A stretch of DNA of 61,406 nt, filler included. It is 4 parts of 4 records of this genome, joined end to end, with 100 filler letters (N's around TTAATTAATTAA, not from the genome) between each part and the next. Parts side by side here need not be neighbours in the genome. Positions count along the whole stretch, not along the records: positions 1 to 22,081 come from DRR723986_7143; 3 more parts are not named here. One strand, written 5' to 3'. The position numbers and the translations under genes are program-made. The stretch's first letter is position 1; every line of letters begins with the position of its first letter. This document shows, piece after piece, positions 3,127-47,171 of this stretch. The notes under the pieces were generated by a model. The model was not told the DNA's origin, did no database searches, and saw nothing but the letters and a program-made list of their open reading frames with translations.

Positions 3127-3156
3127 AAAACAGGCAGGCGGGGGCCTGCCTGTTTT
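3127..3156. terminator. Bidirectional intrinsic terminator
   Basis: AAAACAGGCAGGC-GGGG-GCCTGCCTGTTTT perfect stem between convergent genes. Confidence 0.8.
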
Positions 3157-3176: not shown

Positions 3177-4217
3177 TCAGATCACCTTGACGATCTGCTT
3201 GCCCCTGTTGCGCCCCACCAGCATGCCCATAAAGGCCTGCGGTGCGTTTTCCAGCCCTTCGGCGATGTCTTCGACAAATTTCACCTGGCCTGCGGCCACC
3301 ATCGGCCCCACCTCGGCCAAAAAGCCCGGGTAATCGGCCCAGTGATCAGAAATGATAAACCCATGCACATGCAGGCGGTTCACCAAGATCGTGCGCCACA
3401 ACTTGGGCAGGTTGTCTTTCGCGCCCCCCGCATTGGCCCCCAGGGCGCCGGCATTATACCAGCTGATCATGCCGCACACAGGAATGCGCCCGCCCACGTT
3501 CATCAGCGGCATAACGCCCTCTAGAACCTTGCCAGCGACGTTTTCAAAATAGATATCCACGCCCTTTGGGCAGGCCTCGGCCAGGGCGGCACGCATGGCG
3601 GCGGCATCGGCGTAATCGTGGTGGTTCAGGCAGATATCAAACCCAAAGGTTTCGCGCGCCATGGCGCATTTTTCAGCCCCTCCTGCCACGCCCACCACAT
3701 GGCACCCACGGGCCTTGGCGATTTGCCCCACCATCGAGCCCACAGGCCCGGTGGCGGCCGCCACCACCACGGTTTCACCCGCTTTCGGCTGGCCATATTG
3801 GGTTAGCCCATACCAGCCGGTAAAGCCCGGCATGCCCAGCACACCCAGCGCCGCGGTGATCGGGCCATGGGCCGGGTCAAGTTTACGGATCATCTTGGCA
3901 GGCTGCACACCATGGGTGGCCCAGCCAAACATGCCAAAGGCAAAATCGCCAGGCTGAAAGCCCGGGTCGTTCGAGGCGATCACCTCGCCCACAGCGCCCC
4001 CCTCCATTGTGCCACCAAGGGGCACAGGGGTGGCATAAGATTTCGCATCATCCATACGCCCGCGCATATACGGATCAAGCGACATGTAATGCACGCGCAC
4101 CAGCACCTCGCCCGGGCCGGGGGTGGGGATGGGCGCCTCTTCCAGGCGGAAATCTTCGTCGGTCGGGGCGCCTACGGGGCGGCGCGCCAATGCGATGCGC
4201 TTCATTGTCTCGGTCAT
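3177..4217 (-). CDS. NADP-dependent alkenal/one oxidoreductase (CurA / prostaglandin reductase-like MDR)
   Basis: LARRPVG, MSLDPYMRGRM, LGVLGMPGFTG, AATGPVG, GLENAPQAF..GRNRGK motifs. Confidence 0.9.
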   Translation of the reverse strand: MTETMKRIALARRPVGAPTDEDFRLEEAPIPTPGPGEVLVRVHYMSLDPYMRGRMDDAKSYATPVPLGGTMEGGAVGEVIASNDPGFQPGDFAFGMFGWATHGVQPAKMIRKLDPAHGPITAALGVLGMPGFTGWYGLTQYGQPKAGETVVVAAATGPVGSMVGQIAKARGCHVVGVAGGAEKCAMARETFGFDICLNHHDYADAAAMRAALAEACPKGVDIYFENVAGKVLEGVMPLMNVGGRIPVCGMISWYNAGALGANAGGAKDNLPKLWRTILVNRLHVHGFIISDHWADYPGFLAEVGPMVAAGQVKFVEDIAEGLENAPQAFMGMLVGRNRGKQIVKVI

Positions 4218-4242
4218 TTCGCGTTTCCCTTTTAATGATCGT

Positions 4243-4641
4243 TTAGCGGCCGCGGTAGCGGAACACGCCGGTGCCTGTGGCGATCAATTCGCCGGTTTCG
4301 TCGGTGATCTTGCCTTCGGCAAAATAGGTTTTGCGCCCACCGCCCGTGCGCCGCCCCTCGCCGATCAGCAGCTGGCCTTTGGCCTGCGACAAAAACTGCG
4401 TGGTCAATGACAGCGTCATGCATTGCTGCGGCGCATCTGGCGTGCCGGTATAGCTGCCCGCAAACCCCATAACCGTATCCAGCATCACCGCATGCACACC
4501 GCCATGCACAATGCCAAAACGGTTGCCCAGAAATTCCACGATGGGCAGCTCAAAGCGCGCGTAGCCCGTGGACCAGTCGGTGATGTAAAACCCCAGATGC
4601 GCTTGCAGCGGGTAGGGTGGCTCTATCAGTTTCGGATCCAT
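4243..4641 (-). CDS. PaaI-family hotdog thioesterase
   Basis: N.FGIVHGG...MLD motif; start taken at MDPKL. Confidence 0.85.
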   Translation of the reverse strand: MDPKLIEPPYPLQAHLGFYITDWSTGYARFELPIVEFLGNRFGIVHGGVHAVMLDTVMGFAGSYTGTPDAPQQCMTLSLTTQFLSQAKGQLLIGEGRRTGGGRKTYFAEGKITDETGELIATGTGVFRYRGR

Positions 4642-4648
4642 CTTTGCC

Positions 4649-5683
4649 TCAAACAGTTTTGGCGGCGTCAAGCCCCGCTTGGGCAAAGCGCGGCACGAAT
4701 TCACCCAGCATCATCGCGCGTTCTGGGTTCGAGGCATTGCCATCCAGCGCGCGTTTCAACACCCCTTGAATGATTGCCCCCATGCGGAAGAAATTGAACG
4801 CCAGATAAAAGCCCAGCCGGTCGATCCCGGCCAAGCCGCGGCGCTGGCAATAGGCATCTACGAATTCGTCATCGCTCATCAGCCCCTGCGCGTGGCGATC
4901 TACCCCCGCCAGGCCACGCCCCTCGGTGCCGGGGGGCATAGACCATTGCATCAAAACAGCGCCCAGATCGGCATAGGGATGGCCGGTTGTAGACAGCTCC
5001 CAATCCAGCACCGCGGCACAGCGCGGGGCGTCTGCGGCAAAGAGCATATTGTCGATGCGGTAATCACCATGCACCAAGGTGCGCTGCCCATCATCGGCGG
5101 GCAGATTGGCCTGCAGCCAGACAATCAGCTCTTCCATGGCGGGGATATTTTGGGTTTCGCTGGCGCGATACTGCTTTGTCCAGCGCCCCACTTGGCGCTC
5201 GTAATAATTGCCCTCGGGGCCATAATCGGCCAGGCCCACAGCGCCCAGATCGACGCTGTGAATAGCGGCCAAAACGCGGTTCATTTCGTCAATGATGGCG
5301 CGGCGCTGGCCCTGTTCTAATTCGGGCAGGCGCGGGTCGTTGAAATGGCGCCCCTCGACATGCTGCATGACATAGAACATCGATCCGATCACGGCATCAT
5401 CTTCGCACAGCACATGCATTTGCGCCACGGGCACATCGCTGCCCCAAAGCGCGCGCTGCACGCGAAACTCGCGGTCTACCGCATGGGCCGATTTCAACAA
5501 TTGCCCCGGCGGTTTGCGGCGCAGCACATAGCTGGCGGTGGGGGTTTTCAGCAAAAATGTCGGGTTCGATTGGCCACCGGCAAATTTTTCCGCCGTCAGC
5601 GGGCCAGAAAACCCCGGCATCGTCTGTTCCAGCCAGGCACCTACGGCATTTACATCAATCTGTGCTGCGGCATGCGCGCTCAT
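4649..5683 (-). CDS. APH-family phosphotransferase, ACAD10/ACAD11 N-terminal kinase type
   Basis: GGQSNPT, VLRRKPPGQLLKSAHAVDREF, HGDYRIDN, LDWELSTTGHP. Confidence 0.9.
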   Translation of the reverse strand: MSAHAAAQIDVNAVGAWLEQTMPGFSGPLTAEKFAGGQSNPTFLLKTPTASYVLRRKPPGQLLKSAHAVDREFRVQRALWGSDVPVAQMHVLCEDDAVIGSMFYVMQHVEGRHFNDPRLPELEQGQRRAIIDEMNRVLAAIHSVDLGAVGLADYGPEGNYYERQVGRWTKQYRASETQNIPAMEELIVWLQANLPADDGQRTLVHGDYRIDNMLFAADAPRCAAVLDWELSTTGHPYADLGAVLMQWSMPPGTEGRGLAGVDRHAQGLMSDDEFVDAYCQRRGLAGIDRLGFYLAFNFFRMGAIIQGVLKRALDGNASNPERAMMLGEFVPRFAQAGLDAAKTV

Positions 5684-5693
5684 ACCGGCCTCC

Positions 5694-6359
5694 TTAACTA
5701 TAGGTCAAAAGCGTGTCTTGATTGTCGCCGTCGATATGGGGGGTTTCATTGAAACTGCCCAAATGTTCGGCCTTTGGCGTGGCCACGATGCGCGTGACCG
5801 AGCAGTTTTTGATCTGCAACTGCAAGCGGATCATGGCATCGGCCGGCGCGCCCATAATTTCAGCCACGCTTTGGCCGATGGCCCCGCCCGAGGTAACAAC
5901 CATCACCTGTTCATGCCCACCTGCCATGGCCTGGGCGCGCGCATCGCGCACGCGGGCGGCAAAATCGGCATAGGGTTCTGGTGGGTTTTCTATCTCGTTT
6001 CGCTGCCATTCCAGCACGGTTTCGCGCAGGGTTTTGAAATGGCTGCGCCGGTCTGTGTGCATGTTGTCTGGCGCCGGGCGATTGCGATAGCGCGCGTTCA
6101 ACAGGCCGCCAAAATCAAACTCGTTAAAGCCGGGCAAAATGCCATCAACCGCCCCATAGCCCAGGGCCAGGTTGATGCCCTCCCATGTTTCGCGATGGCG
6201 GCGTTGCGCGCCGATAAACACCGCGCTTGGGCGCGCGCCCAGGGCTTGCAGCGCCACACCCAGCGCCTGCGATTGCACATGCCCCAGATCTGACAGCTTA
6301 TCGTAATCAGCGGCCCCAAAACTGGCCTGTGCATGCCGGATCAACCATAGCTCAGCCAT
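5694..6359 (-). CDS. Histidine phosphatase family protein
   Basis: LIRHAQASFGAADYDKLS (RHG-type motif), NEFD, VVTSGG; overlaps upstream gene by 8 nt. Confidence 0.88.
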   Translation of the reverse strand: MAELWLIRHAQASFGAADYDKLSDLGHVQSQALGVALQALGARPSAVFIGAQRRHRETWEGINLALGYGAVDGILPGFNEFDFGGLLNARYRNRPAPDNMHTDRRSHFKTLRETVLEWQRNEIENPPEPYADFAARVRDARAQAMAGGHEQVMVVTSGGAIGQSVAEIMGAPADAMIRLQLQIKNCSVTRIVATPKAEHLGSFNETPHIDGDNQDTLLTYS

Positions 6360-7332
6360 CGATCACACCCCGCATACGGGCCTTGGCCGCATCATATTCC
6401 TGTGCCAAACGCGCCACCAATTCGGCCGCGGGCTGCACCTGTTTGATGGCCCCAATACCCTGGCCTGCGCCCCAGATTTCTTTCCAGCTTTTGGGCTTTT
6501 CGCGGTTGGCGCCAAAGTTCATCGCGCTTGGGTCGGATTCGGGCAGGTTGTCTGGATCCATGCCCGCGCGGGCGATTGAAGGTTTCAGGTAATTGCCCCA
6601 AACCCCGGTAAAGAGCGAGGAATACACAATATCTTCGGCGCCGCATTCGGTGATCATGCGCTTGTAATCGGGGTCGGCCCCGGCCTCGGCTGTGGCGATG
6701 AAGGGCGAACCGATATAGGCCAAATCGGCCCCCATCGCCTGCGCCGCCAGGATAGAGCTGCCATTGGCGATGGCGCCTGACAGCAACAAAGGCCCATCAA
6801 ACCATTCCCGAATTTCCGAGATCAAGGCCAGGGGCGATTGCGCGCCTGCGTGCCCACCCGCACCAGCGGCCACCGCGATCAGCCCGTCGGCACCCTTTTC
6901 GATGGCTTTTTTGGCAAAGGTGTTGTTGATGATATCGTGCAAGGTGATGCCACCACAGGCATGGGCGGCCTCGTTCACCTCGACCCGCGCACCCAGCGAG
7001 GTGATCCACACCGGCACCTTCCATTTGTGGCAAATTTCGATATCGCGTTCCAGCCGCGTATTCGAGCGGTGCACAATCTGGTTCACCGCATAGGGGGCGG
7101 CGGGGCTGTCTGGGTTTGCCTGGTTGTAGCGGTCCAGCTCTTCGGTGATGCGTTGCAGCCACCGCTCTAGCATGATCGGCTCGCCCTCGGCCTCGCGGGC
7201 GTTCAGCGCCGGAAACGAGCCGATGATGCCCGCCTTGCACTGGGCAATCACCAAATCAGGGTTCGAGATGATAAACAGCGGCGAGCCGACAACCGGCAGG
7301 CGCAGCGTGTCAAAGAGCGCGGGCAAAGCCAT
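6352..7332 (-). CDS. Nitronate monooxygenase / FabK-like FMN-dependent oxidoreductase
   Basis: PLFIISNP, GAGGHAG, LSGAIANG, AYIGSPFIAT, WGAGQG; start at MALPAL. Confidence 0.88.
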   Translation of the reverse strand: MALPALFDTLRLPVVGSPLFIISNPDLVIAQCKAGIIGSFPALNAREAEGEPIMLERWLQRITEELDRYNQANPDSPAAPYAVNQIVHRSNTRLERDIEICHKWKVPVWITSLGARVEVNEAAHACGGITLHDIINNTFAKKAIEKGADGLIAVAAGAGGHAGAQSPLALISEIREWFDGPLLLSGAIANGSSILAAQAMGADLAYIGSPFIATAEAGADPDYKRMITECGAEDIVYSSLFTGVWGNYLKPSIARAGMDPDNLPESDPSAMNFGANREKPKSWKEIWGAGQGIGAIKQVQPAAELVARLAQEYDAAKARMRGVIDG

Positions 7333-7429
7333 GGGTTTTCCTTCATCATGGCGGGGCGGGCCCGCCTTTTGGCACATCGTTCAGCAGGCGCCGCCCCAGG
7401 CACAGGCCCAGGGCGGCGCAAAGGGTGAA

Positions 7430-8632
7430 TTACAGCACTTCGAACAGGCCGGCAGCCCCCATGCCACCCCCCACGCACATTGTGCACACAACATAGCGCG
7501 CCCCGCGGCGTTTGCCCTCGATCAGCGCATGGCCCACCATGCGCGCGCCCGACATGCCATAGGGGTGGCCAATGGAAATGGCGCCACCATTGACGTTTAG
7601 CAATTCCTGCGGAATGCCCAGAACGCGCGCCGATTGCAGCACTTGGCTGGCAAAGGCCTCGTTCAATTCCCACAGGCCAATATCGTCGATTTTCAGCCCG
7701 TGGGCTGCCAGCAATTTAGGCACAGCGTAGATCGGGCCAATACCCATTTCATCAGGCTCGCAGCCCGCCGCCATCACGCCCACATAGCGCCCCAATGGCT
7801 GCAGGCCGCGGCGTTCGGCTTCGGCCGCTTCCATGATCACGCTGGCCGATGCACCATCAGACAGCTGGCTGGCGTTGCCCGCGGTGATGAAACGGCCCTC
7901 GGATACTTTTTGGCCACCTTTGAACACCGGCTGCAACGCCTGCAGATCTGCCAGCTGGGTGCTGGGGCGGTTGCCCTCGTCTTTGGCCAGGGTCACGGCT
8001 TTTTCGCTGATTTCCTTGGTTTCTTTGTTCATCACCAGCATGGTGCTGTCCAACGGCACGATCTCGTCGTCGAATTTGCCTGCCTCTTGGGCTGCGGCTG
8101 TGCGCTGCTGCGATTGCAGCGCGTAGGCGTCTTGATCTTCGCGGCTGACGCCATAGCGGTCGGCCACGATTTCGGCCGTTTCCAGCATCGACATATACAG
8201 CTCGGGCTTGTTGGCTTTGGTCCAGGGGTCGGCCAGCCAATCGGTGCGCATCTTGTCGTTTTGCACCAGGCTGATCGATTCAACACCGCCGCCGATCACA
8301 ATATCCATACCATCATGGATCACCTGCTTGGCCGCGGTTGCAATGGCCATCATGCCGCTGGCGCATTGCCGGTCTAGCGACATGCCCGCCACCGATACAG
8401 GCAGGCCCGCGCGGATCACCGCCTGGCGGCCAATGTTGCCCCCGGTCGAGCCCTGCTGAATGGCGGTGCCGATGACACAATCGGAAATTTCATGCCCTTC
8501 CAGCCCAGCACGCGCCACGGCGTGTTTCACCGCATGGCCAATCAGCGCCTGCGCCGAAGTGTTATTGAAAGCACCGCGATAGGCCTTGCCGATCGGGGTG
8601 CGCGCGGTCGAGACGATTACTGCATCACGCAT
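7430..8632 (-). CDS. Acetyl-CoA C-acyltransferase (thiolase)
   Basis: RTPIGKA, RQCASG catalytic Cys, [24 protein letters not shown]. Confidence 0.95.
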
Positions 8633-8646
8633 AAACTGTTCCTTTC

Positions 8647-9579
8647 TTACTCGTTCCATGGGGCGGGCAAGCCGCGGGCTTCCGCTGCCATGCGCGCATA
8701 TTTGCGGGTTTGGGCAAAGGCATTATCCATTTCGGTTTGGCCTTCGGGATTGCGAATTTGGCCCAAGGCGGCCAGCACGCCTTCGGGTGTTAGGGCATCG
8801 CCCTGCAGGGCCACACCTGCGGTTTCATACACTTTGGTCTCGGTGAAACAGCCGGCACCGGCGCCCAAGATCATTTTGTTGGGCGCCTCTTGGCTGACCA
8901 GCATCAACAGGCCCGGGGTAATGGTTTCAGGCCGCAGCAAATCCAGCGTTTCGGGCGGCAAAAGCGCCTCGGTCATGCGGGTGGCGGCGGTGGGGGCCAG
9001 CATGTTGACATGCACATTCTTGCGCGCGCCTTCTTGGGCCAGAACATTCATCAGCCCCAGCATGGATGCTTTTGCCGCGCCATAGTTAGACTGGCCAAAA
9101 TTGCCATAAAGACCACTGGCCGAGGTGGTGAAAACAATCCGGCCATATTCGCGCCCCACCATGTGCGACCACAGCGCATGGGTGCAATTGACCGTGCCCA
9201 TCAAATGCACATCCAGCACCACGCGGAAATCCTCCAAGCTGGCCTTGGCAAAGGTTTTATCGCGCAAAATGCCGGCGTTATTGACCAAGATATCGACATG
9301 GCCAAAGGTATCGATGGCCTCGTCCACCATGGCCTGAACCTGTGCTGCATCGGTGACATTGGCACCATTGGCGATGGCCTGCCCGCCCATATCGCGGATC
9401 TCTTGCACCACCGCCTGCGCGGCCTGGCTGCTGGCGCCGGTGCCATCGGTGGCGGCGCCCAGATCGTTGACCACCACCTTGGCGCCACGCGCCGCCAAGC
9501 CCAGCGCATGGCTGCGCCCCAGCCCCACACCCGCGCCAGTTACAATGGCTACGCGGTTATCAAACCTGATCTCGCTCAT
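8647..9579 (-). CDS. SDR, MFE-2-type 3-hydroxyacyl-CoA dehydrogenase-like
   Basis: [53 protein letters not shown]. Confidence 0.88.
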
Positions 9580-10040
9580 GCGTCCCCCCCAAAATAGCGC
9601 CGCCCAATCCATTCGGCGGCCAATGCCGGCTTTTCCTGGCCTTCGATTTCTACGCTGACAGCCATGATCGTGGTGATAAAGCCCGGTTTACTGTCATCCA
9701 CGCTTTTCATGGTGAAATGCGCCCGAATGCGCGCGCCCGCGGGCACCGGCGACAGGAACCGCACCTTGTCGAACCCGTAATTCACCCCCATCGCCACGCC
9801 TTCCAGCACGGGCATCTGATAGACCATGGCCGACAACATCGACAGCGTCAGAAACCCATGCGCAATGGTGCCGCCAAAGGGGGTTTCCTTTGCGGCCTCT
9901 GGATCGCAGTGAATGAACTGCCAGTCTTCGGTGACATCGGCAAAGGCATCGATGCGCTTTTGATCGATGCTGAACCAATCTGATGTGCCAAAATGCTGCC
10001 CTTCTAGGGCTTTGAGCTGGGCAAGTGTGATGGTGGACAT
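9576..10040 (-). CDS. MaoC-family (R)-enoyl-CoA hydratase/dehydratase
   Basis: FADVTEDWQFIH, GGTIAHGFLTLS, NYGFDKVRF; ATGA overlap with the SDR. Confidence 0.9.
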   Translation of the reverse strand: MSTITLAQLKALEGQHFGTSDWFSIDQKRIDAFADVTEDWQFIHCDPEAAKETPFGGTIAHGFLTLSMLSAMVYQMPVLEGVAMGVNYGFDKVRFLSPVPAGARIRAHFTMKSVDDSKPGFITTIMAVSVEIEGQEKPALAAEWIGRRYFGGDA

Positions 10041-10041
10041 G

Positions 10042-10866
10042 TTACAGATCCTCGTTGAACAGGCTGCCGGGTGCGTTTGATTGCATGCCGCCCGAAAGCG
10101 GCAAAATCGCCCCCGAAAGATAGGCCCCGCCGCGCCCGCACAAAAACTGCAAGGCGCCGGCGATGTCTTCGGGGCTGCCCACACGGCCCAGCGGCACGCC
10201 TTCGGCCGATTTGGCGCGCCCCTCTTCCGAGGCCAGTGCGAAAGCCGTCATCTTCGACACAAACGGGCCTGGCGCAATGGCATTCACGGTGATGAATTCA
10301 TGCGCCAGATCATTAGACAACACCCGCGTCATATGGTGCACCGCCCCTTTGGAAACGGCGTATGAATAGGTGGCTGTGCCTTTGGGGATATCGCCCATAA
10401 CGCTGCCCACATTGACTACGCGCGCCGGGTCTTCGGGGCGGGCCGCGGCGCGCAGCAGCGGCAGCAAGCTTTGGGTCAGGTGGAACATGCCGGTGACATT
10501 CAGCGACAACAGCTTGTCCCAGGCCTCGTAGGGGTGTTCGCCCAAAGGTGCCCCCCATGTGCGACCGGCGTTGTTCATCAGTATATGCAAAACATCGGTG
10601 CGCGCCTGAACCGCTTGGGCCAAGGCGGCAATGCCGTCTTGGGTGGCAACATCGCCGCCAAACCCCTCGACATGGCCGCGCAGGCCCAGCACATTCAGCT
10701 CGGCCGCTACGGCCTGGCAGGCATCGGCCTTGCGGCTGGCAATCAGCACCCGTGCCCCCGCCGCGGCCAGGCCATGGGCCGCCATGCGGCCAATGCCCGT
10801 GGCCCCGCCAGTGACCAGCGCCACCTTGCCAGACAGATCAAACAGGCTTTCTGGTGTCATATCCAT
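10042..10866 (-). CDS. SDR-family oxidoreductase (RhlG/FabG-like)
   Basis: TGGATGIG, NNAGRTWGA, YAVSK catalytic YxxxK. Confidence 0.88.
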   Translation of the reverse strand: MDMTPESLFDLSGKVALVTGGATGIGRMAAHGLAAAGARVLIASRKADACQAVAAELNVLGLRGHVEGFGGDVATQDGIAALAQAVQARTDVLHILMNNAGRTWGAPLGEHPYEAWDKLLSLNVTGMFHLTQSLLPLLRAAARPEDPARVVNVGSVMGDIPKGTATYSYAVSKGAVHHMTRVLSNDLAHEFITVNAIAPGPFVSKMTAFALASEEGRAKSAEGVPLGRVGSPEDIAGALQFLCGRGGAYLSGAILPLSGGMQSNAPGSLFNEDL

Positions 10867-10875
10867 TCTATCCCC

Positions 10876-12009
10876 CTAAAAGCCGCGCGCAGCGGCCACC
10901 TGTGCCGCGTGATAGCCGTAATCGCCCAGCCATTCGGTGCCCACGCGGGCGCGTTTCATGTAAAAGCCGATATCATAGGCATCTGTCATGCCGATGCCGC
11001 CATGCATCTGCACGCCTTCGCGCACCGCCAGATCCACCGTTTGCGCCGCGCGGGCCTTGGCCAGGGATACGGCCAAACCGGCCTCGGCGGGTGTGGCATC
11101 CAGCACCCGGCCGGCATTGGCAATGGCGCTGGCTGTCACCTCGATTTCGGCCCAAAGATGGGCTGCGCGGTGCTGCAACGCCTGAAAGCTGCCAATGGTG
11201 CGATCAAATTGCTTGCGCTCTTTCAGGTAGCCCACGGTCATGCCATAGGCGCCCCCGGCAACGCCCAGCAATTCGGCCGCAACAGCGGCTTGGCCCGCTT
11301 GCACCCCGCGCGAAAGCAGCGCCCAGCCATCATCCAGCGTGCCCAGCACCTCGTCGCCCGTGGCCTCGACCCCATCAAACAGCATCTGCGCATGATCTCG
11401 GCTGTCTACCGTGGCGCGGGCGGTTTTGCTCAGCCCGGCGCGATCGGCGGGAATGTCAAACAGGGTCAGCCCTGCGGCCTCGCCCGGGCCACCGGCGGTG
11501 CGCGCCAGAACCAGCACACGATCTGCACAGCCACCATCGGCCACAAAGGCCTTTGTGCCGCTTAGGCGAAACCCGTTGCCAGATTTTTCCGCCGCAAGCG
11601 TGGTGGTCAGCGGCGCGTGTTTGCGCCCCTCGTCCAGCGCTATGGCATAAAGCAGATCACCCTGCGCAATGGCGGCCAGGGCATCGGCGCTGTGCTGGCC
11701 CGCCGCCGCGCGCAAGGTGGTGGCCGCGATCACCGCGCTAGAGATAAAGGGGCTGGCCGCCAGGGTGCGGCCCATTTCCTCGGCCAGAATGCCCGCGGCA
11801 CGCTGGCCCATATCGGCGCCGCCCTGGGCCTCGGGCACCACAACGCCCGCCCAGCCCATTTGCGCCATTTCGCGCCACAGACCGGTATCAAACGGGCGGC
11901 CCTGGTCGCGGTTGGCCCGCAAATTTGCCACGGGCGCTGCATCGGCCAGAAAGCCGCGCGCCGCATCGCGCAGCATGGTTTCGTCTTCGGTTTCCAAAAG
12001 GCTTGTCAT
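10876..12009 (-). CDS. Acyl-CoA dehydrogenase, PimD-like small subunit
   Basis: RKQFDRTIGSFQALQH, QMHGGIG; degenerate EPxxGSD region (ALDEGRKH). Confidence 0.88.
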   Translation of the reverse strand: MTSLLETEDETMLRDAARGFLADAAPVANLRANRDQGRPFDTGLWREMAQMGWAGVVVPEAQGGADMGQRAAGILAEEMGRTLAASPFISSAVIAATTLRAAAGQHSADALAAIAQGDLLYAIALDEGRKHAPLTTTLAAEKSGNGFRLSGTKAFVADGGCADRVLVLARTAGGPGEAAGLTLFDIPADRAGLSKTARATVDSRDHAQMLFDGVEATGDEVLGTLDDGWALLSRGVQAGQAAVAAELLGVAGGAYGMTVGYLKERKQFDRTIGSFQALQHRAAHLWAEIEVTASAIANAGRVLDATPAEAGLAVSLAKARAAQTVDLAVREGVQMHGGIGMTDAYDIGFYMKRARVGTEWLGDYGYHAAQVAAARGF

Positions 12010-12017
12010 GATGGCCC

Positions 12018-13208
12018 CTAGCTGTTTGGCAGTTCAAGAACACGTTTGGCGATGATATCCAGCATCACTTCGCTGGTGCCGCCCTCGATAGAATTGGCCT
12101 TGGTGCGCAGCCATTCGGGGGCCAGGCTGCCATGCGGCCCATCCCATTCTACCGCCTCAGAGCCCGCCGCAGACATCAGCAGCTCGTAGCGCTCTTTGTT
12201 CAGCTCGGTTCCGTAATATTTCAGCATGGCGCTGGCATTCCCCACACCGCGCCCGGCCTCGGCCTGGTCTTTGTAGCGCTCCATCGTCATGGCAAAGGCC
12301 AGGGCATTCACCTCGATACGCATGGCTTCGGCGCGGGTCACAGGGTTATCCAAGGCGCCATCGAGATCACCCAGGAACTGCCCCAGCGAGCGCCCCCCCA
12401 ACAGCCCACGCGCGCCGCCGCCAATCATTTCGCGCTCATGCGTCAGCAGATATTTGGCAATATCCCAGCCACGGTTCACCTGCCCCACCACCGATGGGTT
12501 ATCTTCCCCATAGGATTTGGGCACTTTGACATTGTCGAAAAAGGTTTCGCAAAAGGGCGATTTGCCCGATATCAGCTGAATGGGGCGGGTGGTGACACCG
12601 GGGCTGTTCATATCGATCAACATGAACGAGATGCCCTTGTGCTTTGGCGCGTCGCGGTCGGTGCGCACCAAGGCGAAAATCCAATCGGCGCGATCGGCAT
12701 AGGATGTCCAGATTTTCTGGCCATTCACCAACCAATGATCGCCCATATCCTCGGCGCGGGTTTGCACATTGGCCAGATCGCTGCCTGCGCCCGGTTCGGA
12801 ATAGCCCTGACACCAGCGAATTTCACCGCGCGTGACGGGCAAAAGATGCGCCAGCTTTTGGGCATGGGTGCCAAATTCCAACAGCGCCGGGCCCAGCATC
12901 CACAAGCCAAAGCTTTCCAAGGGCGGCGGGGCTTGCAGGCGTTCTAGCTCTTCGCGGTAGATCTTTTCTTCGGCCCGCGACAGGCCCGCCCCGCCATATT
13001 CAACCGGCCAGCGCGGCGCAGTCATGCCCCGGGCGATGGCCGCCTGCATCCAGGTTTTTTGATCATCATCCTGAAATTGCCATTTGCGCCCGCCCCACAC
13101 GATGCGGTCTTCGCTTATCGGGCGCCCGCGCAGGGCGGCGGGGCAGGCGGATGTGATCCAATCGGCAATCGCTGTGCGGAACGCATCCAGTGCGGCAGTG
13201 TCAGGCAT
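12018..13208 (-). CDS. Acyl-CoA dehydrogenase, PimC-like large subunit
   Basis: WCQGYSEPGAGSDLA, NGQKIWTS, FFDNVKVP, SIEGGTSE; GGAGG RBS before MPDT. Confidence 0.9.
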   Translation of the reverse strand: MPDTAALDAFRTAIADWITSACPAALRGRPISEDRIVWGGRKWQFQDDDQKTWMQAAIARGMTAPRWPVEYGGAGLSRAEEKIYREELERLQAPPPLESFGLWMLGPALLEFGTHAQKLAHLLPVTRGEIRWCQGYSEPGAGSDLANVQTRAEDMGDHWLVNGQKIWTSYADRADWIFALVRTDRDAPKHKGISFMLIDMNSPGVTTRPIQLISGKSPFCETFFDNVKVPKSYGEDNPSVVGQVNRGWDIAKYLLTHEREMIGGGARGLLGGRSLGQFLGDLDGALDNPVTRAEAMRIEVNALAFAMTMERYKDQAEAGRGVGNASAMLKYYGTELNKERYELLMSAAGSEAVEWDGPHGSLAPEWLRTKANSIEGGTSEVMLDIIAKRVLELPNS

Positions 13209-13229
13209 TGGTCTCCTCCCAGAAACATA

Positions 13230-13244
13230 TTTTGCAGTGCGAAA
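13230..13244. promoter_or_regulatory. Putative IclR-family operator
   Basis: TTTTGCAGTGCGAAA, near-palindrome 22 nt upstream of the first gene of the operon. Confidence 0.55.
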
Positions 13245-13322
13245 TTGAATTCCGTCGTTACTGCTAGGCAATATCAACCGGCGGGCATGGTCAAGCCACA
13301 GTTCAGCTTAAAACCAAATAAC

Positions 13323-13359
13323 GCAACGGCAGCACGGCACGGGGCCAGGCTGCCGTTGC
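13323..13359 (-). terminator. Stem-loop after the CoA ligase gene (probable terminator)
   Basis: GCAACGGCAGC...GCTGCCGTTGC 11-bp stem, followed by GTTATTT on the minus strand. Confidence 0.55.
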
Positions 13360-13367
13360 AGCAAAAA

Positions 13368-14999
13368 TCAGCGCAAATCGGGCAGCTGATAATCGGCAAA
13401 TTGTTGGCGCAATGTCAGCTTTGATACCTTGCCCGTGGCGGTCAGCGGCAGGGCATCTACCCAGATCACATCATCGGGCAGCTGCCATTTGGCAAAATGT
13501 TCAGACATATGGGTGTGGATATCGTCAAGCGCGGGCTTGTCAGCGCCGGCGGCCACAGCCACCAACACTGGCCGCTCGTCCCATTTGGGGTGGGGCATGG
13601 CGATGGCTGCACAGGCGGCAATGCCCGGATGCGCCATGGCCACATTTTCCAGATCAATCGACGAAATCCATTCGCCCCCGGATTTGATCAGGTCTTTCGA
13701 ACGGTCCTGGATCGTCAAAATGCCATTCTCATCGATCGAGGCGATATCGCCCGTGCCGAACCAGCCCTCGGCATCCACCGCTTTGGCGCTGGCCTCGGGG
13801 TTGTTGAAATAGCCCGAAACAATGGTGTTGCCGCGCACGAATAATTCGCCCACCGCCTTGCCATCATGGGCCACACGTTGGCCGTTATCATCGATGATTT
13901 TTAGCTGCACGCCAAAGGCACGGCGCCCCTGTTTGGCCTTTACATCTACCATCTTATCAAAGGGCAGCTCTTTCACCCATTTGGGCATATTGCCATGGGT
14001 GCCGATCGGGCTCATTTCGGTCATGCCCCAGGCATGGCCCACATTCACGCCCATTTTCTCGAATGTTTCGATCATTTTGCGCGGCGCGGCCGAGCCGCCG
14101 ACCACCACATCGGAAAAGCCCGATGGCTTGCGCCCCTGTTTTTGGATCTCGCCCAGCAGGCCCATCCAAACCGTGGGCACACCCCATGCCGAGAAGACAT
14201 TTTCTTGATCCATCAGCCTGAACAGGCTTTCGCCATCCAGCGCGCCGCCGGGCATCACCAGCGAATGGCCCAACAAAGGCGAGGCATAGGGAATGCCCCA
14301 GGCATTCACATGAAACAGCGGCACCACCGGCAGCACGCGCGCCTCTTCGGGGATAGACTGGCCCATGATCAGCCCCACCATCATGGCGTGCAGCACAGTC
14401 GAGCGGTTGGAATAAAGCGCGCCCTTGGGGTTGCCCGTGGTGCCCGAGGTATAGCACAGGCCCGCGGCGGTGTTTTCGTCAAATTCGGGCCATTCGAAAC
14501 TGTCTGGCTGCTCTTCCAGCAGCTCTTCGTAGCACAGCGCATCCAGGGTGTTTTCTGGCATATGCGCGCGGTCTGTCATGATGACAAAGCGCAAATCACT
14601 GGGCAATTCGCTGCGCACAGCCTGCAGAATGGGCACAAAGGTGGTATCCACGAAAATCAGCTTATCTTCGGCGTGATTGACGATGTAGATCAGCTGCTCG
14701 GCCGACAGGCGTGGGTTGATCGTGTGACACACCGCACCTTGGCCAGAAATCGCATAATACAGCTCGAAATGGCGATAACCGTTCCATGCCAGCGTGGCCA
14801 CCCGATCGCCCAGCTGCACGCCAAGCGCCTTTAGGGCATTGGCCAGCTGATACACACGGCGCAGCGTTTGCGGGTATGTTTGGCGGTGAATATCACCCTC
14901 GGTGCGCACCGAAATAATCTCGGCCTTGGCATGCGCCTCGGCGGCGTATTCCAGAATGTTACTGATCAGCAACGGTCTGTGCTGCATCATGCCCTGCAT
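13368..14999 (-). CDS. Medium/long-chain fatty acid-CoA ligase (AlkK/DmdB-like)
   Basis: MQGMMQHRPLLIS start with GGAGG RBS; ATLAWN, CYTSGTTGNPKG, WGMTEMSP, DRSKDLIKSGGEWISS, ATGK. Confidence 0.92.
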   Translation of the reverse strand: MQGMMQHRPLLISNILEYAAEAHAKAEIISVRTEGDIHRQTYPQTLRRVYQLANALKALGVQLGDRVATLAWNGYRHFELYYAISGQGAVCHTINPRLSAEQLIYIVNHAEDKLIFVDTTFVPILQAVRSELPSDLRFVIMTDRAHMPENTLDALCYEELLEEQPDSFEWPEFDENTAAGLCYTSGTTGNPKGALYSNRSTVLHAMMVGLIMGQSIPEEARVLPVVPLFHVNAWGIPYASPLLGHSLVMPGGALDGESLFRLMDQENVFSAWGVPTVWMGLLGEIQKQGRKPSGFSDVVVGGSAAPRKMIETFEKMGVNVGHAWGMTEMSPIGTHGNMPKWVKELPFDKMVDVKAKQGRRAFGVQLKIIDDNGQRVAHDGKAVGELFVRGNTIVSGYFNNPEASAKAVDAEGWFGTGDIASIDENGILTIQDRSKDLIKSGGEWISSIDLENVAMAHPGIAACAAIAMPHPKWDERPVLVAVAAGADKPALDDIHTHMSEHFAKWQLPDDVIWVDALPLTATGKVSKLTLRQQFADYQLPDLR

Positions 15000-15050
15000 G
15001 GCATCCTCCCTGAATGTGCTCCCTGTTCCGCAGGTTAACGCTGGGGGCGC

Positions 15051-15114
15051 GTTTGCCAAATGGAAAACGCAAAAAACCCAAGCGAATTTGCACCATTTTT
15101 TCCATATAGCGGAA
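15051..15114. promoter_or_regulatory. Two putative IclR-family operators in the divergent promoter region
   Basis: GTTTGCCAAATGGAA (15051-15065) and TTCCATATAGCGGAA (15100-15114). Confidence 0.6.
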
Positions 15115-15218
15115 TGCCGTTGCGTCATTTCACAGCTGGCTTGAGGCAGGGGCGCAGCATGGCCTAGGCTTTGCACCAACAGGCCCACATGCCGCGGGCC
15201 ACCGATGGAGGGGACCAC

Positions 15219-16184
15219 GTGAAGGCAATCATCTGCAAAGAATTCGCACCACTGGATGCGCTGGAATATGGCGATATCGCCGCCCCCGAGGCCACTGGCG
15301 ACTCCGTGCTGATCAAGGTCGAGGCGGCAGGCGTAAACTACCCCGACGGGCTGTTGGTGCAGGGGCTTTACCAAATGCGCCCCGAACACCCGTTCATCCC
15401 CGGGATGGAGGCCGCAGGCACCGTGGTGGCCCTGGGCCCCGATGCCAGCGGTATTGCCGTGGGCAGCCGTGTGGCCACGATCTGTTCGCTTGGCGGATAT
15501 GCCGAAATGGTGGCTGCACCGCAGGGCCGGGTGTTTCCCATTGGCGATATGGATGCAGCCGAGGTATGCGCGCTGATGGTGGCCTTTGGCACCTCGCATC
15601 ACGCGTTGAAACAGCGCGCCAATCTGCAGCCCGGTGAAACCCTGCTGGTAACTGGCGCCGCAGGGGCCACGGGCATTGCCGCCATACAGATCGGCAAGAT
15701 CATGGGCGCAAAGGTTATCGCCGTGGCATCAACCCCGGAAAAACGCGCCATCGCGGTGGAAAACGGGGCCGATCACGCGATTGGCTATGAAAACCTGAAA
15801 GACGAAATCAAATCGCTGACCGGCGGCAAGGGCGTGGATGTGGCCTTTGAATCGGTCGGGGGCGAGGCCTTTGCCGCCTGTGCCCGCGGCATGGCCCGCA
15901 ACGGGCGGCTGTTGGTGATAGGCTTTGCCGGTGGCGAAATTCCAAAACTGCCGGTGAACCTGACGCTGGTGAAAGAATACAGCGTTGTGGGCGTGTTCTG
16001 GGGCAATTTCACCCGGTTTGAACCGGCGGTTTACGCCCAGAATATGGAAGAATTGCTGGGCTGGTACAAAAGCGGCCAGGTCAAACCGCTGATCGAGGGG
16101 CGCTATCCTTTGGCGCAGGCGGCCGAAGTGCTAAAACGCGTTCTGGGGCGTGGCGCCACCGGCAAGATTGCCCTGATCCCGTAA
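15219..16184 (+). CDS. NADPH:quinone oxidoreductase-family MDR
   Basis: GTG start after GGAGG; GVNYPD, PFIPGME, GAAGATG, IGFAGGEIP. Confidence 0.9.
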   Translation: MKAIICKEFAPLDALEYGDIAAPEATGDSVLIKVEAAGVNYPDGLLVQGLYQMRPEHPFIPGMEAAGTVVALGPDASGIAVGSRVATICSLGGYAEMVAAPQGRVFPIGDMDAAEVCALMVAFGTSHHALKQRANLQPGETLLVTGAAGATGIAAIQIGKIMGAKVIAVASTPEKRAIAVENGADHAIGYENLKDEIKSLTGGKGVDVAFESVGGEAFAACARGMARNGRLLVIGFAGGEIPKLPVNLTLVKEYSVVGVFWGNFTRFEPAVYAQNMEELLGWYKSGQVKPLIEGRYPLAQAAEVLKRVLGRGATGKIALIP

Positions 16185-16208
16185 CGCAGCAATGGGGGCC
16201 TATGCCCC

Positions 16209-17030
16209 CTAACCGCCAATGTGGCGCACAGCATTGACCATATGCAACAGCCTTGGGCCCAGCTCGGCCTCCAGCCGCTCACGCGGCAAAACAAAGGCCG
16301 GGCCACCAAGGTTAAAGGCCAAAAGCGGCGCATCCCCTTGCGGCGAGATATAGGGCACCGACACCGAATTGATGTCAGTTTGCCACTCGCCCACATTGCA
16401 ATAAAACCCACGCTCGGCAATTTGGGCGCGTGCATCTTCGATACCTTCACGCAGGCGCGGCCATTCTTCGGGGCCGGCACGCTGGGCGATACGCTCGAAT
16501 AATTCGGCGCGCTCGGCCTCGGGGGCAACGGCCAGATACGCCCGCCCCACGGCCGAGCGGCTAAGCGATATGCGCGAGCCCACATTCAGCTGCAGCGAGA
16601 TCATTCCCCGCGTCGCGCGCGCCGTGGCGATATAGGTCATGGTCAGGTCATCGCGCCCCCCCATGCCCACCAGCACGCCATCGCCGCATTCATCGGCCAA
16701 TTGCTGCATCAAGGGCTGTGCGGTTTCGCGCACCTTCATGCCCCCCAAACAGGCATAGCCCAACCCCAGCACCGGCACCCCCATACGGTAGCGCCCGGTT
16801 GCCTCGTCATACACCAGATACCCCAGCTTCAGCAGCGTATAGGTCAGCCGCGAAACGGTAGAGTTGGGCAGCCCCGTGCGCGCCGCCAGTTCCCGGTTGC
16901 CAAGGCCCAGCTTATCTTCGGTGGAAAAGGCGCGCAAAATATCCAGGCCACGGTGCAACGCGGTCACAAATTGGCGGTCGCCGCTTTCGGCCTCGGCATT
17001 CTCTGCCAGCTCTTGTATCCGCTTTCTCAC
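16209..17030 (-). CDS. IclR-family transcriptional regulator
   Basis: FVTALHRGLDILRAF, HTH ELAARTGLPNSTVSRLTYTL, SAVGRAYLA, IclR effector domain. Confidence 0.93.
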   Translation of the reverse strand: MRKRIQELAENAEAESGDRQFVTALHRGLDILRAFSTEDKLGLGNRELAARTGLPNSTVSRLTYTLLKLGYLVYDEATGRYRMGVPVLGLGYACLGGMKVRETAQPLMQQLADECGDGVLVGMGGRDDLTMTYIATARATRGMISLQLNVGSRISLSRSAVGRAYLAVAPEAERAELFERIAQRAGPEEWPRLREGIEDARAQIAERGFYCNVGEWQTDINSVSVPYISPQGDAPLLAFNLGGPAFVLPRERLEAELGPRLLHMVNAVRHIGG

Positions 17031-17088
17031 CGTATCGTTCCTGTTTTCATTGGGTTTCTGGCCCTATGCCAAACCGCGCGCCCCGCGG

Positions 17089-18762
17089 TCAAGCAGCGCC
17101 CGCTTTTTCGCGCTCGGCCAATTCGCGCCACAACACCTTGCCACTGCCCGATTTTGGCAAGCTTTCCACAAATTCCACCACGGTCGGGCATTTATAAGCC
17201 GCCATTTGCCCGCGGCACCAGGCGATCACATCATCACCCGACAGCTGGCCATTGGCGCCAGCGCGTGGCACCACAACCGCCTTTACCGTTTCGCCCCGCC
17301 GCCCATCGGGGGTGCCGATAATGCAAGCCTCGGCGATATCGGGGTGATGGTGCATCATCGCCTCTACCTCGGCGGGCCATACTTTGAAACCGCTGGCATT
17401 GATCATGCGCTTGACCCGATCGACCATATAAAAATAGCCGTCAGGATCGACATAGCCCAAATCGCCAGTGCGGAAAAACCGCTTTCCATCCATCTGGAAA
17501 AACGATTTTTCGGTTTCCTCGGGGCGGTTCCAATAGCCCAAAAACACCTGCGGGCCGTGGGTGACAATTTCGCCCACCTCGCCCTGGGGCAGCTCTTGCA
17601 GCGTATCGGGGTTTACCACGCGGCTATCCACCTCGAACACAGGGATGCCCAAACATTGCCGCCGGGCGGCATGCACGGGGTTGATATGGGTGGCGGCCAT
17701 GGTTTCGCTTAGGCCATAACCCTCGACATAATGCAGGCCCGTCAGATCAAACAGTTTTTTCGCCACCGCCTCGGGCATGGCGGCGCCTCCGCCCCCAATC
17801 GCAACAAGGCTGGACAGATCGTAATCTGCAGCATTCGGGGCATTCAGCAGATCGATCGCCATGGTCGAGATCGAGCGCCAGCGCGTCACCCGATACCGGC
17901 GGATCAATTGCGCCGCCACATCGCGGTTCCAGCGGGTCATCAGCACAATGGCACTGCCCGCAATGATGGGCCCGTTCATACAGGCCTGCATGCCAGTTAC
18001 GTGAAACAGCGGCAGCGCCGCCAGGTTTACATCGGCCTCGGTGGCGGGGTTCCACACCACGCCCCCCCAAGCGGTGACATTCACCGTGAAATGGCTGTGC
18101 ATACAGCCCTTGGGCTTGCCCGTTGTGCCCGAGCTATAGGGGATAACCGCCAGATCACCAGCCTGCGCCAAATGCGCGCGCGCAGCATGGCCCGCCGCCA
18201 GTGCATCGGCCCAGCGCACCACCCGCGGATCGGCAATTTGGCTGGCCGACTGGGCATCCAGATCGCCCGGCAAGGCGATGGTGCGGGCGGGATGGGCGGC
18301 CTCGGCATAGGTGGCGGCCAGAATGGTGCCCAGTGCGCCGTCATCCAGCAGTGGGGTGGCATGATCTAACAGCTCTTGCCCGGCCAACATGACACGCGCG
18401 CCGGTATCTTCGGCGATATGGCGCAGCTCGGCCACGCGGCTCATGGGGTTGACGGGCACCACCACCGCATCAGCGCGCAAAATAGCGTAGTAGCCCACAA
18501 TGAATTGCGGGCTGTTTTGCATATACAGCAAAACCCTGTCGCCCTGTGCCACGCCTTGGGCCTGCTGCAAATAGCCCGCCAGCGCCTCGACCTGTGCCAG
18601 CAATGCGCCATAGCTGGTTTCAGCCTCGTGATAGATCAGCGCCGGCCGCGCTGGGTGGCGCGCAGCGGTTTTCTTTAGGTTGTCAAACAGGCTGCCTGTG
18701 GGCCAGCCGGTGGTTTCCGGCACGCCCGGTGGCCAAACTTTCATATGCAAGCGGTTGCTCAT
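17089..18762 (-). CDS. Long-chain fatty acid-CoA ligase
   Basis: PYSSGTTGKPKG, EGYGLSET, FRTGDLG, DRVKRMINASG, PKSGSGK; start at MSNRLH. Confidence 0.92.
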   Translation of the reverse strand: MSNRLHMKVWPPGVPETTGWPTGSLFDNLKKTAARHPARPALIYHEAETSYGALLAQVEALAGYLQQAQGVAQGDRVLLYMQNSPQFIVGYYAILRADAVVVPVNPMSRVAELRHIAEDTGARVMLAGQELLDHATPLLDDGALGTILAATYAEAAHPARTIALPGDLDAQSASQIADPRVVRWADALAAGHAARAHLAQAGDLAVIPYSSGTTGKPKGCMHSHFTVNVTAWGGVVWNPATEADVNLAALPLFHVTGMQACMNGPIIAGSAIVLMTRWNRDVAAQLIRRYRVTRWRSISTMAIDLLNAPNAADYDLSSLVAIGGGGAAMPEAVAKKLFDLTGLHYVEGYGLSETMAATHINPVHAARRQCLGIPVFEVDSRVVNPDTLQELPQGEVGEIVTHGPQVFLGYWNRPEETEKSFFQMDGKRFFRTGDLGYVDPDGYFYMVDRVKRMINASGFKVWPAEVEAMMHHHPDIAEACIIGTPDGRRGETVKAVVVPRAGANGQLSGDDVIAWCRGQMAAYKCPTVVEFVESLPKSGSGKVLWRELAEREKAGAA

Positions 18763-23966: not shown

Positions 23967-24091
23967 AGCGAAAACCACCCAAAACCCCAGCTTGCAGTAT
24001 GCGGGCCTGCAATGCTGGGTCAAAGAAGAGTGCAGCAAATGGTTAATAGTGCTTGGGATAACGCGGCCAATATTAGGGCCAAACAGGCTGT

Positions 24092-29897: not shown

Positions 29898-29987
29898 GGC
29901 CAATTTCGGCGCGCAAAACTTTACTCAAAAGATAGTTTTTGCTACGTTTGGGTAGGTTTTGTTTGGTTACGCGTGCCGGGGGTTCTG

Positions 29988-47149: not shown

Positions 47150-47171
47150 CTTATCCACCGAAAGACACTCC

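Follow-up and report, generated by a model that had tools for sequence, protein, structure and literature searches.

The window analysed here is a stretch of 61,406 nucleotides, made of four parts of one genome joined end to end by filler letters; its first part (positions 1 to 22,081, record DRR723986_7143) carries, between positions 3177 and 18762, a cluster of acyl-CoA genes surrounding a kinase of the ACAD10/ACAD11 type, a candidate line for the beta-oxidation of fatty acids with a hydroxyl or oxo group at C4. Eleven genes are packed on the minus strand, from 13208 to 3177, and each of them could be assigned to a family from the list of open reading frames (ORFs), Pfam and NCBIfam. Their junctions range from overlaps of 8 and 4 nt to gaps of at most 25 nt, with a single wider one, of 97 nt, between the genes for the thiolase and the nitronate monooxygenase (NMO)-like protein. 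A gene for an acyl-CoA ligase, 159 nt upstream of the two acyl-CoA dehydrogenase (ACAD) genes and in the same orientation, is the probable first of twelve genes in an operon extending from 14999 to 3177 on the minus strand. A first-pass annotation of this DNA had listed the eleven tightly packed genes with their families, and had remarked that a small ORF like LvaB was missing; all genes were found at the positions and in the families indicated, and no gap in the operon is large enough for an ORF of the size of LvaB (about 100 aa), the largest being the one of 159 nt. The genes of the locus are the following.

3177-4217, minus strand: CurA-type NADPH-dependent enone/alkenal reductase, a medium-chain dehydrogenase/reductase (MDR) of the PTGR1/LTB4-12HD family, last gene of the operon (Pfam ADH_N_2, 2.3e-41)
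4243-4641, minus strand: PaaI/4HBT acyl-CoA thioesterase of hotdog fold (Pfam 4HBT, 1.9e-08; TIGR00369, 52.8 bits, cut-off 36.6)
4649-5683, minus strand: small-molecule kinase of the ACAD10/ACAD11 type (LvaA-like), predicted 4-hydroxyacyl-CoA kinase (Pfam APH, 8.7e-52)
5694-6359, minus strand: protein of the histidine phosphatase superfamily (branch 1), Ser-variant subfamily (Pfam His_Phos_1, 1.1e-18)
6352-7332, minus strand: NMO/FabK-like FMN flavoprotein, probable enoyl-thioester reductase (Pfam NMO, 2.1e-19)
7430-8632, minus strand: thiolase, acetyl-CoA C-acyltransferase (Thiolase_N, 5.6e-58; Thiolase_C, 8e-42; TIGR01930, 402.6 bits, cut-off 240.55)
8647-9579, minus strand: (3R)-hydroxyacyl-CoA dehydrogenase of the multifunctional enzyme type 2 (MFE-2) kind, a short-chain dehydrogenase/reductase (SDR) (nearest solved structure 2et6, 7.8e-120)
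9576-10040, minus strand: MaoC-type (R)-specific enoyl-CoA hydratase (Pfam MaoC_dehydratas, 1.4e-27)
10042-10866, minus strand: classical SDR, candidate 4-oxoacyl-CoA reductase (Pfam adh_short, 7.6e-46)
10876-12009, minus strand: small subunit of a heteromeric ACAD, PimD/ChsE5-like (nearest solved structure Tcur3481, 6wy8_A, 2.5e-35)
12018-13208, minus strand: large, catalytic subunit of a heteromeric ACAD, PimC/ChsE4-like (Tcur3483, 1.1e-44; 4x28_A, 1.7e-41)
13368-14999, minus strand: acyl-CoA ligase 1, DmdB-like, medium-chain type, probable first gene of the operon (Pfam AMP-binding, 6.8e-68)
15171-16184, plus strand: MDR oxidoreductase of the quinone oxidoreductase (QOR)/PIG3 type, divergent from the operon, start uncertain (Pfam ADH_zinc_N, 9.6e-31; TIGR02824, 204.3 bits, cut-off 296.8)
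16209-17030, minus strand: regulator of the IclR family (Pfam HTH_IclR, 1.9e-15; IclR_C, 1.5e-15)
17089-18762, minus strand: acyl-CoA ligase 2, upstream of the IclR gene (NF006181, 834.6 bits, cut-off 705)

For the thioesterase, an internal Met at 4641 was picked as the start, the longest ORF beginning at 4704, and the flavoprotein gene has an alternative start at 7377. The CurA-type reductase scores 451.5 bits with the NCBIfam equivalog NF058644, above its cut-off of 440; the name of this family is the annotation of its members and says nothing on the substrate here. Ligase 1 exceeds the cut-off of NF004837 (527.3 bits, cut-off 476) and remains below that of NF005426 (739.6 bits, cut-off 822). 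At the other end of the operon, a terminator-like hairpin was found on the minus strand at 3151-3128, just beyond the stop codon of the CurA gene, in a terminator scan which overall gave no enrichment (22 sites against 19.0 expected); a promoter scan returned 2 sites where 7.1 were expected. Read from either strand, the hairpin (about 3128-3152) is terminator-like, and it is approached from the other side by a convergent ORF on the plus strand (2554-3126, 190 aa), which has no Pfam family and a His- and Met-rich N-terminal part.

In the PDB, 3dxp was the best match of the kinase (8.5e-108); mouse ACAD11 (8v3v) was aligned by its kinase domain, at 1.3e-80, with residues 8-342 of the 344-residue window protein. 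Among the longer-protein matches listed, identity to animal ACAD10 and ACAD11 proteins is 43-51%. LvaA of Pseudomonas putida is only 29% identical to the ACAD10/11 kinase domains (PMC11342911; here and below, papers cited by PMC number are represented by excerpts), so that the window kinase belongs to a bacterial group truly close to ACAD10/11. All 16 orthologues compared share Asp207 and Asn212 of the HGDxxxDN motif, the DWE motif (D227-W228-E229) and Arg163. In the alignment with 8v3v, D207, N212 and R163 correspond to D220, N225 and R176 of mouse ACAD11, of which the first two are catalytic and the third contacts CoA (PMC12440821); the roles of the kinase residues, that of DWE as a metal motif included, are derived from this paper and from PMC13596139. 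For R86 of the paper, the alignment gave no unambiguous counterpart. The CoA moiety is, according to PMC12440821, required for recognition of the substrate by the kinase. By its sequence, the protein is homologous over its full length to the kinase domain of ACAD11, with a predicted activity on 4-hydroxyacyl-CoA, and the ACAD10/11 character proposed for it in the first-pass annotation is confirmed.

Natural proteins were found in which such a kinase is joined to ACAD, His_Phos_1, NMO, SDR, enoyl-CoA hydratase or CoA ligase domains; in the NMO-kinase fusion P0027, the NMO part is 36% identical to the window flavoprotein. P0003, a joined ACAD and kinase protein, was rejected as a fusion: the C-terminus of its ACAD, including the catalytic Asp, is replaced by unrelated Arg/Ala-rich residues, which suggests a frameshift-merged gene call, showing adjacency and not a true fusion. 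In a quick tree of the kinases, loci with only an ACAD11-type neighbour branch first, and the large clusters are found inside a derived group, whose support is only 83 and which is nested within sets of 96 to 98 support.

No ACAD11-type ACAD was found in the window, where the only match is a segment of 170 aa in the large ACAD subunit, at 30% identity. The nearest genome, G001, contains the cluster at 99% protein identity and a single kinase of the ACAD10/11 type; here the ACAD11-type ACAD was found, with P0003 as the query (68% identity), on another contig, among unrelated genes for sulphur transport and a lipoate ligase. The nearest solved structure of this protein is human ACAD11 (2wbi, 1.1e-124), and both the Arg-x8-His-x3-Arg triad, linked to binding of the 4-phospho group (PMC12440821), and the catalytic Asp of 'ADGPD' are kept. 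Triad and Asp are likewise kept in 47 of the 47 ACAD11-type matches examined, some of which are the same place seen twice.

The distribution of the two genes was evaluated by a profile survey of 151 Rhodobacteraceae genomes. They represent roughly one genome for each genus, are kin to each other, and have, with one exception, a completeness of 90% or more. Kinase and ACAD11-type ACAD are found together in 65 genomes, the kinase only in 3, the ACAD only in 1 and neither in 82; the three kinase-only genomes (G004, G018 and G020) are assemblies of 200 to 1160 contigs. Because of the kinship, the Fisher value calculated for this association is too favourable, but over some 150 genera the pattern is plain. 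When both are present, they are separated by less than 200 nt in 27 genomes, by 277 nt in one and by one small gene in 6, so that 34 of the 65 have them within about 750 nt; in 9 they are 0.9-20 kb apart, and in the remaining 22, including both genomes of the genus of the window, they are on different contigs or more than 20 kb apart. Kinase and ACAD11-type eliminase are thus a near-obligate pair in Rhodobacteraceae (65 of 68 kinase-bearing genomes), often encoded apart, and the genomic evidence points to the kinase working together with the ACAD11-type ACAD. The first-pass annotation had proposed a variant route lacking any LvaC/ACAD11-type enzyme; this part of it had to be revised, given the partner encoded elsewhere in G001 and the co-occurrence and proximity of the two genes, and the cluster is probably not a route independent of such an enzyme.

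A divergent ACAD11-type subgroup was also observed at 8-16 kb from the kinase; its identity to the G001 protein is 53-56%, and it retains both triad and Asp. In one such locus, L082 (Sulfitobacter sp. S190 plasmid), where the kinase cluster is plasmid-borne, the divergent gene (19269-20531, minus strand) adjoins genes for a TetR protein and an acyl-CoA thioesterase II.

Among the remaining enzymes of the operon, the SDR at 8647-9579 matches, in the PDB, the yeast (3R)-hydroxyacyl-CoA dehydrogenase 2et6 (7.8e-120), human 17beta-HSD4 (1zbq, 6.6e-75) and its rat counterpart (1gz6, 2.9e-74), as well as the dehydrogenase domain of fly MFE-2. Its gene adjoins that of a MaoC hydratase-2 domain, and the two are predicted to form an R-specific line, equivalent to an MFE-2 split into two proteins. 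For the NMO protein, the nearest solved structures are those of FabK enoyl-ACP reductases (2.2e-18).

From these assignments we infer the following route, its substrate included. A CoA ligase would activate the acid, and the ACAD10/11-type kinase would phosphorylate the 4-hydroxyacyl-CoA; a stand-alone flavoenzyme of the ACAD11/LvaC type, encoded elsewhere in the genome, would then eliminate the phosphate, giving a 2-enoyl-CoA. R-specific beta-oxidation could follow through the MaoC hydratase, the MFE-2-type (3R)-hydroxyacyl-CoA dehydrogenase and the thiolase, while the heteromeric ACAD pair would carry out ordinary dehydrogenations. Substrates would probably be brought to the 4-hydroxyacyl-CoA stage by the second SDR, the FabK-like flavoprotein and the CurA-type reductase, through saturation of C=C bonds or reduction of a 4-oxo group, and the PaaI thioesterase may free CoA from dead-end esters. 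The phosphatase-fold protein most likely would act on 4-phosphoacyl-CoA or limit it, as has been considered for the HAD domain in ACAD10. In vitro, the ACAD10 domains can be substituted by bacterial orthologues in which kinase and ACAD are stand-alone proteins (PMC11342911). On the whole, we lean, with moderate confidence, towards the operon being a beta-oxidation line for fatty acids with, or gaining, a hydroxyl or oxo group at C4, which uses the kinase-plus-lyase route of ACAD11 in split form.

The two ACADs encoded in the operon are of a different kind. Both are closest, in the PDB, to the two chains of the heteromeric ACADs 6wy8/6wy9 and 4x28, which we take to be steroid side-chain enzymes; no ACAD11 chain is present among the 60 best PDB matches listed for either. 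In the alignment, the Arg-x8-His-x3-Arg triad and the catalytic Asp of 'ADGPD' are absent from both, confirming that the pair is not of the ACAD11/LvaC type, as had been noted at first pass. The large subunit has the canonical catalytic Glu, one column before the position of the ACAD11-type Asp, and the small subunit has no Glu in the canonical catalytic column. In other genomes the two genes are inseparable, as all 21 kinase places with either of them hold both; at 20 of these 21 the pair precedes the kinase, in the same orientation. These places were found through the kinase search, so that pairs without a kinase are outside the sample.

The nature of the pair raises the question whether the operon serves other acyl-CoAs, such as dicarboxylates, as for pimFABCDE, or alicyclic or steroid-like acids, the kinase and the phosphatase being passengers or catalysing a side reaction. 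The top NCBIfam names for the two subunits are indeed PimC and PimD, IpdE2 is among the matches of the small one, and their nearest solved relatives are the heteromeric ACADs mentioned above. The Pim scores are, however, all far below the curated cut-offs (PimC TIGR03204, 238.6 bits against 623.85; PimD TIGR03203, 175.4 against 652.7; PimA, for ligase 2, 291.1 against 705.6), and the window proteins scanned include no further steroid or ring-cleavage families; for lack of other steroid gene families in the window, a steroid-degradation reading was set aside. With the pair also nearly always placed upstream of the kinase, albeit in loci selected by the kinase, an operon for other acyl-CoAs is considered unlikely.

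In order to see how far the cluster is conserved, about 10 kb on either side of 71 kinase places, in 68 genomes, were scored for orthologues of the window proteins. An ACAD11-type ACAD is found near the kinase at 38 places, the SDR of the 10042 type and MaoC at 28 each, NMO at 25, the phosphatase and the MFE-2-type SDR at 24 each, PaaI at 23, the ACAD pair at 21, QOR at 20 (divergent from the cluster, 38-94% identity), IclR at 19 (mostly just downstream of the kinase), the thiolase at 18, CurA at 16 and ligase 1 at 14. Ligase 2 is near the kinase at 2 places, one of them in another genus (52% identity), its link to the cluster being otherwise confined to its own genus. Of the 71 places, only L095, L096 and L098 have all eleven partners of the kinase (the other ten packed genes and ligase 1); L098, from another genus of the family, has the same gene order for the eleven partners, at 54-86% protein identity. 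The complete set is also present in a cultured relative, at the locus L023, titled Marimonas lutisalis GH1-19. The cluster is therefore not a chance assembly, since the same order recurs in L098 and at least one core orthologue is present at 47 of the 71 kinase loci.

Other arrangements are also recurrent. A compact locus type consists of ligase 1, MaoC, the ACAD11-type gene, the kinase and PaaI, at times with a divergent CurA. L097, L117 and L126 show a window-like order with the ACAD pair, and an ACAD11-type gene inserted ahead of phosphatase and kinase; L103 has the same insertion in the absence of the pair. At 18 of the 71 loci the ACAD11-type ACAD is the only scored gene, and at 4 there is none. 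The co-conservation of kinase and phosphatase with the beta-oxidation genes, named as a test at first pass, was found in part: it stands for the kinase at the 47 loci with core orthologues, and fails at the 18 with the ACAD11-type gene only and for the phosphatase, present at just 24 of 71.

A second sample was made of the 80 best kinase loci in a public species collection, mostly from Ruegeria strains, and gave a similar picture. The minimal form in Ruegeria consists of a divergent QOR, SDR, kinase and IclR; the phosphatase is upstream of the kinase at 41 of the 80 loci, and an ACAD11-type gene directly upstream at 6. Related sets are annotated on plasmids: histidine phosphatase, kinase, SDR and ACAD11-type ACAD in Caballeronia; SDR, ACAD, kinase, hydratase, thiolase, NMO, hydratase and ligase, in this order, in Acinetobacter; NMO, an NADP-dependent oxidoreductase 40% identical to the window CurA, ligase, SDRs and kinase in Variovorax.

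In 24 of the 68 kinase-bearing genomes, the histidine-phosphatase-fold gene immediately precedes the kinase, in the same orientation and at a distance of 10 to 62 nt. R8, H9, R54, E80 and S157 of its product are invariant in 16 of 16 orthologues. Ser157 replaces the second catalytic His, as the profile alignment pairs it with the His of 'HGG' or 'HQG' in solved chains of the CobC/PGM family; the canonical core of branch 1 is therefore incomplete, and the fold and family membership stand (Pfam, 1.1e-18). A search of the PDB by phmmer gave no match at E 0.01, solved relatives being reached only by profile search, and a protein-cluster atlas returned only generic 'histidine phosphatase family' clusters. 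The variant defines a subfamily with 1160 representatives at E 1e-30 or better, Ser being present in 148 of the best 150. Since the nucleophile His, both Arg and the Glu are strictly conserved, the residue pattern argues for a predicted active enzyme rather than a dead domain. The phosphatase adjacent to the kinase in Caballeronia, 37% identical to the window protein, has the same Ser; in other lineages, where a His_Phos_1 domain is fused to the kinase, it has the canonical 'HGG'. An unlinked paralogue with the Ser is present in G001, as well as in two genomes that lack the kinase, so that this trait is not specific for the pathway. The G001 paralogue (L169:6660-7463, minus strand, contig C24, about 37% identical) is located beside saccharopine-dehydrogenase-like and M20 peptidase genes; the two others, L170 and L171, are from the genomes without kinase. 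A complex prediction for the kinase and the phosphatase-fold protein, run without alignments or controls, gave a score of 0.01, which speaks neither for nor against binding.

The phosphatase gene tends to co-occur with the ACAD pair: of the 71 kinase places, 19 have both, 5 the phosphatase only, 2 the pair only and 45 neither. This would fit a route, close to the idea of the first-pass annotation, in which ACAD pair, FabK-like flavoprotein and phosphatase-fold protein resolve the 4-phosphoacyl-CoA and an ACAD11-type enzyme is unneeded: the pair would give a 4-phospho-2-enoyl ester, the phosphate would leave with the help of the phosphatase, and the flavoprotein would reduce the dienoyl ester. 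It would also account for the 18 of 21 ACAD-pair clusters without an ACAD11-type gene within 10 kb, and the transient 2,4-dienoyl-CoA chemistry proposed for ACAD10 is compatible with such a split (PMC11342911). Yet an ACAD11-type gene is found elsewhere in 17 of the 18 genomes with the pair, both SDRs and the phosphatase at the kinase locus, the lone exception being G018 (91% complete, 200 contigs). The ACAD11-type gene is evidently constrained, to judge from the 47 of 47 matches with triad and Asp; pair, phosphatase and ACAD11-type gene stand together in L097, L117 and L126; and the pair lacks the phosphate-binding triad. This lyase-free scheme is accordingly held to be quite improbable.

An intermediate proposal can be made, to which little weight is given: the Ser-variant phosphatase, the ACAD pair and the FabK-like flavoprotein could be an add-on module, providing a second, lyase-independent or substrate-specific resolution of 4-phosphoacyl-CoA, or else the phosphatase could be a convergent partner limiting the phospho-intermediate. 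If either were true, a phosphatase-fold partner of the kinase would have arisen at least three times, as a fused HAD domain in animals, a fused canonical His_Phos_1 domain in some bacteria and an adjacent Ser-variant His_Phos_1 protein here.

Several observations weigh against the split kinase-plus-lyase route that we favour. Within 10 kb of the kinase, 3 places have both the ACAD pair and the ACAD11-type gene, 18 have the pair alone, 35 the ACAD11-type gene alone and 15 neither, and clusters with the pair may handle the intermediate differently. The unlinked ACAD11-type gene of the window organism is deduced from G001 and a second genome of the same genus. The SDR at 10042-10866 is 26-33% identical to the kinase-adjacent SDRs of other classes, too low to indicate equivalence with LvaD. 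The phosphatase accompanies only 24 of 68 kinases, is without the second catalytic His and shares its Ser with an unlinked paralogue; what ties it to the pathway is gene position alone. Finally, ACAD10 kinase domains are reported to phosphorylate 1-O-alkylglycerols, and several of their prokaryotic homologues to act on chimyl alcohol, some only with acetyl-CoA (PMC13596139, a 2026 preprint). The last result would suit a 1-O-alkylglycerol kinase for ether-lipid salvage, with the phosphatase acting on the lipid phosphate, as would the lipid-phosphate phosphatase activity assigned to the ACAD10 HAD domain by the same preprint, but this is very unlikely, as all operon neighbours belong to families acting on CoA thioesters, the near-obligate genomic partner is an ACAD11-type ACAD (65 of 68), and CoA is needed for recognition (PMC12440821), the Arg contacting it being conserved here.

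In the favoured reading, kinase and eliminase represent a known pathway, solved only recently, of which bacteria would have a variant with the two enzymes split; the pathway itself would not be new. The mammalian route for 4-hydroxy fatty acids was solved in 2024-2025; to our knowledge, the bacterial one is known mainly from a small levulinate operon. Among the papers listed by literature searches, none was relevant to lva genes in roseobacters, or to the kinase together with nitronate monooxygenase. Three aspects are new: the kinase belongs to an MFE-2-type operon that also encodes a thioesterase, a CurA-type reductase, a FabK-like flavoprotein and a heteromeric ACAD; its eliminase is unlinked; and a Ser-variant phosphatase recurs as its partner. 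Kinase and eliminase being often apart, an annotation based on neighbourhood only would miss half of the pathway. The pair has become part of large, predicted R-specific beta-oxidation operons, resembling the peroxisomal setting of ACAD11, and the operon would mark roseobacters able to use hydroxylated or oxidised lipids; that lipid-peroxidation products or oxylipins are the substrate is speculation. The role of the ACAD10 HAD domain is disputed (regulator, lipid phosphatase or neither), and what such a partner does could be settled more easily with a small, separate bacterial protein in the corresponding position.

The remaining genes of the window are housekeeping ones, none of them lipid-related. 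Just beyond the cluster, at 44-2491 on the plus strand, an 815 aa protein has a DAO, FAO_M and GCV_T architecture, dimethylglycine/sarcosine dehydrogenase-like. Two proteins with RTX calcium-binding nonapeptide repeats are encoded at 23040-24038 (minus strand, 332 aa, HemolysinCabind, 1.1e-40) and 29973-32840 (plus strand, 955 aa, 2.8e-30). A second APH phosphotransferase (44984-46003, plus strand, Pfam APH, 5.2e-30) adjoins two methyltransferase genes (46064-47149 and 47082-48164), one of them Methyltransf_9 (DUF1698). As G001, when searched with the kinase at E 1e-5, gave a single match, this phosphotransferase does not belong to the ACAD10/11 type.

The closest likeness to known systems is with mammalian ACAD11 and ACAD10. 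The kinase is 43-51% identical to the animal proteins listed, with its catalytic residues kept, and the partner ACAD of G001 matches human ACAD11 (1.1e-124) with its Arg-His-Arg triad and Asp. As remarked in the first-pass annotation, the kinase has a phosphatase-fold neighbour, which parallels the HAD domain of ACAD10. The hydratase and dehydrogenase of the operon are of the MFE-2 type, and MFE-2 is peroxisomal. So is ACAD11 (PMC11342911). Unlike the animal proteins, kinase and ACAD are here separate genes, unlinked in the window lineage; the phosphatase partner has a histidine-phosphatase fold instead of the HAD fold of ACAD10, and the kinase is part of a 12-gene operon with heteromeric ACAD, FabK-like flavoprotein, thioesterase and CurA-type reductase. 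The HAD domain of ACAD10 is described as having negligible phosphatase activity and yet restraining the kinase (PMC11342911).

With lvaABCDE(FG) of P. putida the window system has in common a CoA ligase, an SDR, a kinase and an ACAD-family phosphate eliminase leading to beta-oxidation (PMC6692424, PMC11342911). The regulator is different, IclR, the only one in the region, instead of the sigma-54 regulator LvaR; the operon has neither an ORF of the size of LvaB (about 12 kDa, PMC6692424) nor an LvaC-type gene; its kinase is far closer to ACAD10/11 than LvaA (43-51% against 29%, PMC11342911); and a full R-specific beta-oxidation set is added.

The two chains of the alpha2beta2 ACADs PimCD, 4x28 and 6wy8 resemble the window pair in being encoded by two adjacent genes, with Glu in the catalytic column of the large subunit only. 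The window pair differs from PimCD in scoring far below the PimC and PimD equivalog cut-offs, and in its context of kinase, phosphatase and MFE-2-type enzymes.

When three annotation phrases were searched for together in the literature, the only paper retrieved was the one on Pseudomonas citronellolis (PMC6692424). According to that paper, the levulinate-induced cluster of strain LA18T comprises LvaC, LvaD, a histidine phosphatase and a homologue of LvaA. As in the window, the histidine-phosphatase gene adjoins the kinase and LvaB is absent; the two phosphatases are likened by description only. The LvaC-type ACAD is there adjacent, in a small cluster, whereas here it is unlinked and the kinase belongs to a large beta-oxidation operon.

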